Shown: positions 35,319 to 37,999 of the stretch, one piece after another
Layout: each line of letters starts with the position of its first letter
Position numbering within the stretch: the stretch's first letter is position 1
Assembly (NCBI RefSeq): GCF_963921235.1
Contig: NC_086097.1
Span: 107,200,001-107,264,000, forward strand
Length of the DNA stretch: 64,000 bases
Direction of reading: 5' to 3'
DNA from: Mobula hypostoma
Taxonomy: Eukaryota
Program-made: the position numbers and the translations under genes
Notes under the pieces: generated by a model
What the model was told of the DNA's origin: nothing
Databases searched by the model: none
The model's input: the letters and a program-made list of their open reading frames with translations, nothing else

Positions 35319-35985
35319 AGTTTGATAGTAATGTTAACTATAAGGCTGAAGTTTCAAAAATTATATTGAAGGACAAGGAAATGTTGCAGTAGTGTTTATG
35401 AGTTCAATGTCCATTCAGAAATCTGATGGCCCAAGGGCAAAAACTGTTCCAAAATCATTGAGTATGTGCCTTCAGGCTCCTGTACCTCCTCCCTGATGGT
35501 AGCAATGAGAAGACGGCATGTCCTGGTTGATGGAGGTCCTTAATGACGGATGCCGCCTTTTTGAGGCATTGGCTCCATGAAGATCTCCTGGATGCTGGGG
35601 AGGCTAGTGCCCATGATAGAGCTGACAGAGCTTACAACTTTCTACTACTTATTTTGATCTTGTGTAGTTGCTCCCCCCGCCATACCAGATGATGATGCAG
35701 CCAGTCAAAATGCTCTCCAACCGTAAATATTTGCTGGTGTCTTTGGTGACATATCAAATCTCCTCAAACTCCCTATGATATATAGCTACTGTCATGCCTT
35801 CGTTGTAGCTGCATCAATATGATTGGCCCAGGATAGATCCTCAGAGAGCTTAACACCCTGGAGCTTCAAATTACTCACCCTTTCCACTTCTGATCCCTCA
35901 GTGAGTTGGTATGTTTTCCCTCATCTTCCCCTTTCTGAGGTCTACAATCAATTCGTTGGTCTTATTGACATTGAGTACAAGGTTG

Positions 35986-36104
35986 AATCCTGCTGAAGGG
36001 TCTCAGCCCGAAATCCTGACGGTACTTTTTCCATAGATGCTGCCTGGCCTGCTGAGTGTGTGTTGCTTGGATTTCCAGAATCTGCAGATTTTCTCTTGTT
36101 TGTG
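35986..36104 (+). mobile_element. 119-bp PLE mini-insertion (decayed hammerhead + 3' terminus)
   Basis: Perfect 16-bp TSD ATTGAGTACAAGGTTG (35970-35985 / 36105-36120). Confidence 0.85.
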
Positions 36105-36228
36105 ATTGAGTACAAGGTTGTAGCTGCGACAGTGCTCAACCAGCTGATCCTTTTCACTCCTGTACACTTTCTCGTCACCATCTGAAATTCTGCCAACAAT
36201 TGTTATGCCATCTATATTTGGTATGTAT

Positions 36229-36413
36229 GGGGTGTCAGGGAAGGGTAGCACCTCTGGTGGGGGGACATGTCGCATCCTTTTCAGGGTGGTTTGTCCACCT
36301 TTGGTCCCAACCTAGGACTCAGCTCTCACCTGTGGCTCCCCATAGCTGTTTGCATGCGACAGCGGCTACACCCCGGGTAACAGCTTCAACAAGCCGGCTA
36401 AACCAGGTGAGGG
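36229..36413 (+). ncRNA. HDV-like self-cleaving ribozyme fold
   Basis: P1 GGGGUGU/ACACCCC, P2 CUCUCACCUGU/AC(C)AGGUGAGGG, P3 GGC/GCU, L3 starting UCC, P1.1 CC/GG, P4 hairpin and J4/2 GCUAA, all in the canonical order. Confidence 0.75.
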
Positions 36414-36693
36414 TAGCCGACGGGTCTCAAACCCCCGGTGGACTGAGCGGATGAGACCAAAGGAAGATCCAACGGTCAAGAAGGCGGTCTCTGCAAGCGT
36501 CGTGGAACACGTAGAGCAGGACAAGACACAGAAGATATCCTGGTCATTCACTGCACCTAGTCCCATCTCCACCCGTCTCAACTCTTGTCTTGCCACTGGA
36601 TCCAGATGGGAATTGGGAAGAGAGAGTGAGGCTGACGCTGTGTAACTCTCCCTCACTTAAATCCAAATCAAGCGCTAGTCTCGACACCATCTA

Positions 36694-37472
36694 GCCAGCT
36701 GGTGGCACAGTGACATCAGCGCCGGACTCCAGGAGCGAAGGTTCCCGAGTTCGAATCCAGTCCATCCGCTCCGGGGCATGCTTGTGATTATGATTATTAT
36801 GATTATGAGGACATTTAGTAATGCAGGCATTAAGAAATGATAAAAATGTTTTTCCAGAATGATATCACGAAAACACATGACAAACCGACTTAAAAACTAA
36901 CAAAAACCACATAATTATAACATATGGTTACAACAGTGCAAAGCAATACCGTAATTTGATAAGAACAGACCATGACACAGTAAAAATCTCAGAGTCTCTC
37001 GAAAGTTCCATCATCTCACGCAGATGATAAACCTCCAGTGCTGCCAACTTTCCGATACAGCATCCCGGAAGCATCCGACCATAGTCCGACTCAGAGTCCA
37101 CCCAAAAAACTCCGAGCCTCCGATCAGCTCTCCGACACCGATGCACCGAGCACCATCTCTACCGAGCATTTCGACCCCAGCCCCGGCAACAGGCAATAGG
37201 CAAAGCCGAGGATTTGGGGCCTTCCCCTCCTGAGATTCTCGATCGTACAGTAGCAGCGGCAGCGAAGCAGGCATTTCAGAAGTTTCTCCAGAAGCTCCTC
37301 TGCGCTTCATGGCTGTCCCCATCAAATCCGCATTGATGCACAGCCCCAGTTACACATATTGATATTCATTCGGAACGGCCACGCGCGCTGTGTCACGCCG
37401 CCATCTTCTCCTCCCTCCCTTTCCATCTGTGCTGGGTTGAGTGTCGAGCTAGCAACTCGACCGCATAAAAAG
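36694..37472 (+). mobile_element. tRNA-derived SINE (36694-36783 and 37420-37472)
   Basis: Pol III box A TGGCACAGTGA (36703-36713) and box B GAGTTCGAATCC (36747-36758); A-rich end at ~37465-37471. Confidence 0.65.
36784..37419 (-). mobile_element. Short non-autonomous element with (TCATAA)-type tail and AAGATGGCGGC head
   Basis: Tail TGATTATGATTATTATGATTATGA at left; GCCGCCATCTT at 37397-37407; CpG-rich, so probably young. Confidence 0.6.
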
Positions 37473-37999
37473 TACTACTGGTGTCGAGGTCTTCATCAAT
37501 AACGATGGACGAACCTTAGCCACACAGACATGGGGTACAGAGAGTAGAGCAGTGGGCTAAGCTCACATCCTTGAGGAGTGCCAGTGTTGATCATCAGCAT
37601 GGTGGAGATGTTACCTCCAATCCACACAGACTGTCATCTTCCAGTGAGGAAGTCAAGGATCCATTTATGGAGAGAGGTACAGAGGCTCAGGTTTTGGAGC
37701 TTTTTGAACTGAACTGTAGAAATAAATTGTGGTTTCTCCATCTCAGTTGAATATGTTGGGTCAGTTGAGTCTTGAAACTACAATTTGGCCCAGCTGATGT
37801 TAAGTAGAACACTACAATCTAATTAGACTACACACAAGCAAGTCCTTCAGCCCATCTAGTTCATGCCAAACAATTCTGAAGTGCATGTTGATTGATCTCG
37901 CAATGATATCATAAAGCATAAAGTAAGTATTCAGGGCCAGATTGGTTCTAAGATATCTGGTGACCATGTGATATCTGGCTCGGAGGCCAGTGTCAAAAC

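Follow-up and report, generated by a model that had tools for sequence, protein, structure and literature searches.

Extracts of the literature establish ribozymes that resemble that of hepatitis delta virus (HDV) at the head of retrotransposons without long terminal repeats (non-LTR), including non-autonomous ones (PMC6765202). Here we describe a candidate of this kind in Mobula hypostoma. The window, the whole 64,000-nucleotide (nt) stretch that was analyzed (NC_086097.1:107,200,001-107,264,000, forward strand), supplies the coordinates used throughout. An earlier reading of it, hereafter the original prediction, had placed an HDV-like ribozyme with an additional hairpin in loop L3 at 36229-36413, at the head of a short non-coding mobile element. 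This element belongs to a repeat family that we call family A, and the same genome holds two sister families, A′ and B. The HDV-type fold at the head of this high-copy retroposon is real and is supported by sequence comparison, and its catalysis is predicted. On balance we favor, with considerable room for doubt, the reading in which the first ~195 nt of the element would act as an HDV-like self-cleaving ribozyme heading non-coding non-LTR retroposons of ~570 nt.

The closest described systems, as extracts of the respective papers present them, share parts of this arrangement. The R2 ribozymes (Eickbush, Burke & Eickbush 2013, PMC3774820) likewise occupy the 5′ end of a non-LTR element and free it from its co-transcript. 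Their P1 helix has 6–7 bp with a variable and possibly long distance between its strands (23 to more than 700 nt from P1 to P1′), duplicated P1 strands, which allow cleavage at either one, are considered as a way in which the cut could move, and 5′ junctions vary, with microhomology and added bases (PMC3774820). R2 differs in being autonomous, in residing only in 28S ribosomal DNA (rDNA) and in often using 28S sequence for P1 (PMC3774820), whereas the families described here are non-coding and dispersed, encode P1 wholly within the element and, in A and A′, carry a hairpin in L3. In large HDV-like ribozymes of the drz-Agam-2 type (Webb et al. 2016, PMC4908430), a helix (P1.2) closes J1/2 beside P1 and P2 and activates cleavage by nearly three orders of magnitude. 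The corresponding domain here measures ~94 nt, and in A and A′ its basal 5′ strand exactly repeats the P1 strand, which creates a competing register. drz-Agam-2 itself belongs to mosquito RTE elements. In trypanosomes, the HDV-like ribozyme Pr77 opens both an autonomous long interspersed nuclear element (LINE), L1Tc, and its non-autonomous partner NARTc, but it is compact at 77 nt, doubles as an internal promoter and belongs to a protist (PMC3185411, PMC3383444). The short internally deleted elements (SIDEs) of R2 are also short and non-coding, keep a 5′ ribozyme and a 3′ end and use LINE machinery; they differ as internal-deletion derivatives of a known rDNA parent (PMC3414825), whereas copy number here runs into thousands. 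The kind of element is therefore known; the L3 hairpin and the doubled P1 strand, if they hold, would be new.

An HDV-type fold at the head of a retroposon family

The 185-nt stretch at the flagged site recurs across the 3.48-Gb genome, with 2204 first-look candidates, of which the best 40 scored were all 93–100% identical. An exact 24-mer from the head occurs 1693 times genome-wide and never in a reversed control. Alignment of 30 loci delimits family A as a non-coding element of ~570 nt that starts a few bases upstream of 36229 and closes with a tail ending in GGACGAAC(AAC)n. Target-site duplications (TSDs) of 8–15 nt adjoin this (AAC)n tail. In a second sample of 29 new loci, chosen by the 3′ end and hence unbiased at the 5′ end, 21 reach the 5′ region and 8 were called 5′-truncated; one of these 8 (L037) really keeps its 5′ end and carries an internal deletion instead. 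Given the TSDs, the (AAC)n tail and the 5′ truncations, family A is a non-coding non-LTR retroposon, resembling short interspersed nuclear elements (SINEs), made by target-primed reverse transcription. The same observations bear out the claim that a ribozyme-like fold heads a short non-coding mobile element, and the same hallmarks (TSDs, a simple-repeat tail and 5′ truncation) recur in family B.

Direct reading of the sequence confirms every helix of the original prediction at the positions given for it (Table 1). The strands follow the order of the HDV nested double pseudoknot: P1, J1/2, P2, P3, L3, P3′, P1′, P1.1, P4, J4/2, P2′. The strand originally read as P1, GGGGTGT at 36229-35, pairs with ACACCCC at 36368-74 in 7/7 Watson–Crick pairs. 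In HDV ribozymes the C of J4/2 is the general acid, C75 in HDV numbering; its counterpart here, putatively catalytic, is present in 47/47 family A copies. The U and G of L3 that form the reverse wobble, together with the two Cs of P1.1, are contained in family sequences that read TCCCCG or TCCAAG, and among the 47 family A copies the U is kept in all and the G in 37.

A loose descriptor of this architecture (a 7-bp P1 without mismatches, then GG; 6–30 nt of L3, starting TCC; a 3-bp P3; CNAA followed by a P2 of at least 7 bp; a P4; and J1/2 of up to ~200 nt) matches the flagged site alone on both strands of the 64-kb window. It matched 16 times in 755 dinucleotide-preserving shuffles of the window, both strands counted, or 0.021 per window. 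Chance is thus an unlikely explanation for a single window, and this rate is by itself insufficient over a scan of many windows. Near-consensus natural copies also fit the descriptor (3/3 in A, 2/4 in A′ and 2/10 in B). Rfam returned no match at gathering score for the whole window and, at E up to 10 over 35900-36900, no HDV-type match, only a chance small nucleolar RNA match.

A contig from another organism hinted at a relative with a short L3, and the resulting motif search, which matched this genome at 7 places and the control at none, led to families A′ and B. Family A′ is old (74–79% identity; 2686 first-look candidates) and has the L3 hairpin of A, as well as the two P1-like heptamers that A carries, one internal (36229-35) and one in a leader just upstream. 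Family B (92–96% identity; 750 candidates) is ~470 nt long with an (AAG)n tail; it starts with GGGGTAT, has ATACCCC as P1′, and has a 7-nt L3, TCCAAGC, without a hairpin.

Across an alignment of 12 A, 10 A′ and 9 B copies, P1 (formed by the leader), P2 and P4 show both-sided changes between the sister families, in keeping with the covariation that the original prediction had proposed to check. One pair in P1 (7-158: GC 15, AU 7, other 6), one in P2 (8-86: CG 17, GC 8, GU 1) and two in P4 (171-184: CG 12, GC 10, UA 2; 172-183: GC 25, AU 2, GU 2) changed on both sides. In the leader-P1 alignment 90.0% of cells are paired, against 34–54% with slid partners; in the core alignment, P2 reaches 96.3% against 38–56%. 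J4/2 is 5/5 and P2′ 11–12/12 identical in all three family comparisons, whereas J1.1/4 varies (1/4, 2/4 and 3/4) and the rest of J1/2 is less conserved (69/88 for A versus A′, 39/89 for A versus B). Judged from these alignments, conservation is highest where an HDV ribozyme would need it. The string GGGCAAC after P1′, once considered as matching HDV, was dropped because J1.1/4 is not conserved in A′ or B (identity 1/4 and 2/4).

The P1 register and the J1/2 hairpin

The insert had been thought to begin at G36229 (hereafter G1 for family A), with cleavage immediately 5′ of it. The genomic copies place the boundary elsewhere. Family A runs 9 nt further upstream, and in most copies these 9 nt form a leader (GGGGTGTAT or GGGGTATAT) that consists of a second copy of the P1 5′ strand plus AT. 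AT directly precedes the G36229 equivalent in 1554 of 1693 copies (92%), and the complete leader GGGGTRTAT is present in 842 (50%); among the first 100 full-leader copies listed, 82 read GTGT and 18 GTAT. Eighteen family A copies of the 3′-selected sample have a TSD of at least 8 nt. Nine of them start at −7 to −11, three further upstream with extra bases, five within the leader, one at +2 and none at G1, so the expected pile-up of 5′ ends at G1 is absent and cleavage 5′ of G36229 finds no support. The original prediction had named as refuting an extension of copies upstream of G36229 without conservation of the helices; the extension is real, and is itself a P1 strand, while the loss of helices did not appear.

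The five copies that start inside the leader each show microhomology to it. In four others (L003, L027, L045 and L034), the extra bases between TSD and leader partly repeat the target, with an inverted piece in L034; such additions resemble those at R2 5′ junctions. Three 5′-truncated copies of the 3′-selected sample (L046, L056 and L059) share a start at +62/+63 from G1 (TTAGTCCA...), inside the J1/2 hairpin, which may mean that reverse transcription halted at a stable helix or that they form a small subfamily.

The leader is inherited rather than made anew at each insertion, because its G/A state (23/23 among 47 full-length copies) is linked to an internal T/C marker (p=0.0008, 43 sites tested). 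Rebuilding of the leader by the reverse transcriptase, through re-copying or snap-back, was considered and rejected: there is no template for the constant AT spacer, and the G/A state is linked internally.

Family B shows where P1 lies in a relative with a single such strand. There the first 7 nt of the element form the P1 strand, which has covaried with the opposite strand; 17 of 39 matches start exactly at the first G of B, and all 39 start within −4 to +7 of it. By alignment reading of 11 B copies, 7 of which have a readable TSD, the TSD adjoins that G in four (L099, L102, L106 and L107), is off by one G in L103, and is separated by 4 extra bases in L101 and by 7 in L098; the other four are unreadable. 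The 5′ end therefore lies at the base of P1 in B, and likewise in A for the leader heptamer, not for the strand at 36229. The segment of B homologous to the 36229 heptamer (GGGGGCT) is unable to pair with B's P1′, and an alignment that takes the 36229 heptamer as P1 fails in B, where column 15 has 9 unpaired cells and column 16 has gaps. On the combined grounds of homology with B's P1, the 5′-end pile-up and the J1/2 fold, the leader heptamer (36220-26) is probably P1, which would put the cut 5′ of 36220, 9 nt upstream of the earlier placement.

The modeled fold of J1/2 distinguishes the same two registers. For family A we folded a near-consensus copy (L022:1499-1594). Once the leader is taken as P1, the intervening 96 nt up to P2 form a single hairpin from end to end, a 94-nt domain that joins the internal heptamer to the 3′ end of J1/2 (−43.2 kcal/mol, z −2.29 in A; −42.4, z −2.04 in A′; −38.3, z −1.81 in B). 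With the 36229 strand as P1, J1/2 reaches −31.2 kcal/mol (z −0.33), no better than shuffles. Because the two P1 duplexes are identical in sequence and only the J1/2 folds differ, we infer that the leader register keeps ~12 kcal/mol more structure. The hairpin has 30 pairs, 11 of them changed on both sides, with a covariation score of 0.377 (0.04–0.16 for slid partners) and 90.2% of cells paired (36–53% slid). Hence, in this model, 36229-35 is probably better read as the 5′ strand of the J1/2 basal helix.

The L3 hairpin and the state of the window copy

HDV-like ribozymes usually have an L3 that is a short closed loop of ~7–8 nt. Family B, with 7 nt, conforms to this; A and A′ depart from it with 28 nt and a 6-bp hairpin. 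This additional hairpin (36345-63) is present as claimed and is conserved in A and A′: it is intact in 47/47 A copies and identical at 17/19 positions between A and A′, and it is absent in B. Its first pair reads GC in 13 cells and GU in 5, and another of its pairs is unpaired in two cells. Among the titles and abstract openings listed in literature searches, none describes this family or an L3 that contains a helix. In three A′ copies (L066, L067 and L080) precisely the L3 hairpin has been lost and an 8-nt loop remains. The idea that these short-L3 copies preserve the ancestral state was rejected, because a segmental duplicate of L067 that shares its flanks (L078) keeps the hairpin; the loss in L067 therefore followed insertion.

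The copy in the window is probably dead, judging by its sequence. A36342 (the L3 G), T36367 and A36382 are private to it, since seven full-length relatives of the same subfamily nearly always have G, C and G at these positions. The suspected CpG decay at A36342 and A36382 is thereby upheld, both being private CG>CA changes where relatives carry G. The L3 G is essential in R2 ribozymes, and a G-to-A change there abolished cleavage in a Nasonia R2, according to extracts of the R2 study (PMC3774820). The leader of the window copy has decayed as well (Table 1), so that only the internal strand can still pair with P1′ in this copy.

Table 1. Features of the ribozyme-like head, the element body and its nested insertions in the window
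Feature	Coordinates	Strand	Remarks
Leader heptamer, probable true P1 5′ strand	36220..36226	+	Homologous to family B P1; here decayed to GGTATGT, in the family GGGGTGT or GGGGTAT
J1/2 peripheral domain, long end-to-end hairpin (P1.2-like)	36227..36322	+	From the fold and paired-change counts
J1/2 basal helix	36230-39 / 36311-20	+	Overlaps the strand earlier read as P1 (36229-35); from the same fold
P2 5′ strand	36323..36333	+	Pairs with 36402-13, one G.U; pair 8-86 varies across families
P3 5′ strand GGC	36334..36336	+	Pairs with 36365-67, one G.U; intact in 46/47 family A copies
L3, 28 nt	36337..36364	+	TCC CCA (family TCCCCG), then 6-bp hairpin 36345-63 (including a U.G), then G
P1.1, CC / GG	36338-39 / 36375-76	+	CG in 29 and 19 cells; losses are CG>CA
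P3 3′ strand	36365..36367	+	GCT here, GCC in the family
P1 3′ strand ACACCCC (P1′)	36368..36374	+	Covaries with the leader between families
P4 hairpin	36381..36396	+	A36382.C36395 mismatch private to the window copy
J4/2 GCTAA, putative catalytic C36398	36397..36401	+	5/5 identical in A, A′ and B majority sequences
P2 3′ strand, C36404 bulged	36402..36413	+	Sequence reading, covariation
Non-coding body of the family A element	36414..36691	+	This copy lacks ~45 nt after 36446
Nested second short repeat, first part	36692..36783	+	Junction after ...CACCATC common to the composite subfamily
Unrelated later insertion of ~630 nt splitting the nested repeat	36784..37419		(GATTAT)n at the left end; boundaries good to a few bases
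Nested repeat, remainder	37420..37478	+	Alignment
Family A 3′ tail, ending GGACGAAC	37479..37514	+	BLAST of a canonical copy against the window

Downstream of the ribozyme-like head, the element is interrupted by a nested repeat. The stretch 36630-36783 of the window is matched at 39 other places at 89–94% identity. Because at least 39 other places share the same junction, the composite of A and nested repeat has itself retrotransposed as a subfamily. A transfer-RNA identity of the nested repeat, suggested by inspection by eye, was not confirmed, as ARAGORN and Rfam find nothing in it. The ~630-nt insertion that splits this repeat is probably a minus-strand retroposon. A decayed TSD, TTATGCCA at 36203-10 against TTAGCCA at 37516-22, is a tentative possibility. 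The element sits in an open frame on the minus strand (36003-36219) with a motif resembling a LINE reverse transcriptase (…DGITIVGRISDGDEKVYRSE…), which would fit the remark on host Rex sequence in the original prediction, taken as a host LINE.

Parts of the element also occur in 15 other organisms. In contigs of another organism (run X15), a joint leads from the 3′ part of the element (position 1986 in L022 numbering) through 34 other letters back to 1514, and a very deep variant carries C>A at 1612/1613, giving the L3 sequence TCCAAG. From this joint and the deep variant it follows that related families are abundant in other species.

Proposed mechanism, alternatives and significance

In the mechanism we propose, the elements, which have no evident promoter, would be transcribed within longer host transcripts. 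The ribozyme would cut just 5′ of the element's first nucleotide, and the RNA so freed would have a defined 5′ terminus; a LINE reverse transcriptase would then recognize the 3′ stem-loops and the (AAC)n tail and copy the RNA into new sites. In family A, the predicted P1 joins the first 7 nt, the leader heptamer, to ACACCCC. Two nucleotides later would begin the 94-nt hairpin domain, with a basal helix built from the second copy of the heptamer, followed by P2 and P3; then L3 as an internal loop capped by the 6-bp hairpin; and then P1′, P1.1, P4, J4/2 with its putative catalytic C, and P2′.

Several observations weigh against this account. The leader pairs perfectly with P1′ in 14/47 family A copies, against 40/47 for the internal heptamer, and in 23/47 copies it reads GTAT, which leaves an A.C mismatch at P1 position 6. 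The scarcity of perfect leaders is explained by loss at the 5′ junction and by the GTAT variant. For R2, extracts of the published study report that about a quarter of the elements have 1–2 mismatches in the top part of P1, and link P1 mismatches to lost activity in vitro (PMC3774820). Covariation events are few, one or two per helix for P1, P2 and P4 among three related families; in P3 and P1.1 no pair changed on both sides across the three-family alignment; and the L3 hairpin varies by CG>TG decay only, so that none of these three gives evidence of covariation. No Rfam HDV-family model reaches threshold on any of these ribozymes. The lone weak match, to RF02682 (HDV-F-prausnitzii; gathering score 44), scored 13.2 bits (E=1.7) and appeared only with the core of a near-consensus A copy as query, where it aligns GGCAAC, P4 and GGCUAA, and there was no Rfam HDV match in the family B loci or the B core. 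No partner LINE emerged: a query with the 3′ end gave the short family only among the best 40 of 994 candidates. Matches to an A′ query that covered only its first 130 nt, examined in the search for a partner, were ordinary A′ copies with the hairpin. Three of the 10 A′ copies examined (L079, L084 and L086) carry an identical 10-nt deletion between ACAC repeats that removes P1′, either by recurrent slippage or as a subfamily, and a subfamily would have spread without a working ribozyme. Finally, no HDV-like ribozyme known to us has a helix inside L3, and with such an unprecedented helix family A may be slower or inactive.

We weighed three other explanations of the same data. If the strand at 36229-35 were P1 after all, cleavage would fall 5′ of G36229 and the upstream 9 nt would be junction debris or a removed segment. 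The more frequent perfect match of the internal heptamer to P1′ speaks for this register, as does the window copy, where no other strand can pair, and a few copies do start at −1 to +2 (L019, L039, L035 and L052). The internal heptamer is also always preceded by U, which at −1 is best for HDV cleavage according to an extract of the relevant study (PMC1874588). We nonetheless regard it as unlikely. AT precedes the heptamer in 92% of the 1693 copies and the whole leader in 50%, the inherited leader state implies that the propagating RNA contains the leader, and none of the 18 TSD-defined copies starts at G1; moreover, B's homologous GGGGGCT cannot pair with its P1′, and this register leaves the 3′ end of J1/2 unpaired (z −0.33 against −2.29). 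Both registers might instead be used, with the identical heptamers competing for P1′ and cuts falling at −9 or at G1, and only the RNAs cut at −9 keeping P1 plus the basal J1/2 helix and founding lineages. Most complete A copies, and A′, do offer two alternative P1 strands, each a perfect match; Eickbush et al. proposed that a duplicated P1 strand allows the cut at either copy, as extracts of their paper indicate (PMC3774820); and the minority of copies that start at −1 to +2 would be accommodated. Those near-G1 starts show microhomology to the leader, however, and are equally explained by ordinary 5′ junction formation, and the fold energies favor the leader register by ~12 kcal/mol, so that we give this combined use less credence still than the 36229 register.

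A different kind of alternative, in our judgment as improbable as the 36229 register, holds that the head is a structured 5′ module without catalytic activity, either from the outset or by later loss. It could serve as a platform for binding reverse transcriptase, or act in transcription or stability. Transcription initiation would then define the 5′ end, and the likeness to HDV would be a relic, or the fold would have been inactivated in A by the L3 hairpin. This would account for the failure of Rfam models to recognize the fold and for an L3 in A and A′ that breaks the usual 7–8-nt loop, and the GTAT leader and the A′ copies deleted for P1′ suggest that spread tolerates a weakened P1. The R2 protein binds its own 5′ pseudoknot RNA, according to an extract of a published account (PMC6765202), and the strongest covariation here lies in the J1/2 hairpin, which is not ribozyme-specific. 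Yet both-sided changes fall precisely in P1 and P2, the helices that give the double pseudoknot its long-range pairs, and all three families keep J4/2 and its C unchanged, whereas the neighboring J1.1/4 differs among them. In B, moreover, the 5′ terminus coincides with the base of P1, and a transcription start is not expected to track a covarying helix. A self-cleaving head with the leader as P1 remains our preferred reading.

A bolder version of the preferred reading, which we advance tentatively and would not ourselves bet on, is that the form with the L3 hairpin is a fully active HDV-type ribozyme of a new structural subclass, marked by an L3 that opens as an internal loop under a capping helix, and that the repeated P1 strand acts as a two-register switch. 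Such a switch would decide between a cut at the true 5′ end, which keeps P1 and the activating helix, and a cut 9 nt inside, which yields a crippled product; the hairpin or the switch could also serve as a docking point for a protein, for instance the reverse transcriptase of the partner. The genome holds natural controls for these features, in that neither the hairpin nor the doubled strand occurs in family B and the hairpin alone is gone from some A′ copies, and the effect of each feature on cleavage is therefore testable with natural sequences.

If the self-cleaving reading is true, a vertebrate genome would harbor thousands of copies of several related, ribozyme-headed short retroposons. 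Their ribozymes would include a conserved helix inside L3, adjoining the active site and missed by the usual descriptors and by all Rfam models, and a doubled P1 strand whose second copy would also build an activating J1/2 helix. Ribozymes with a helix in L3 may accordingly be under-counted.

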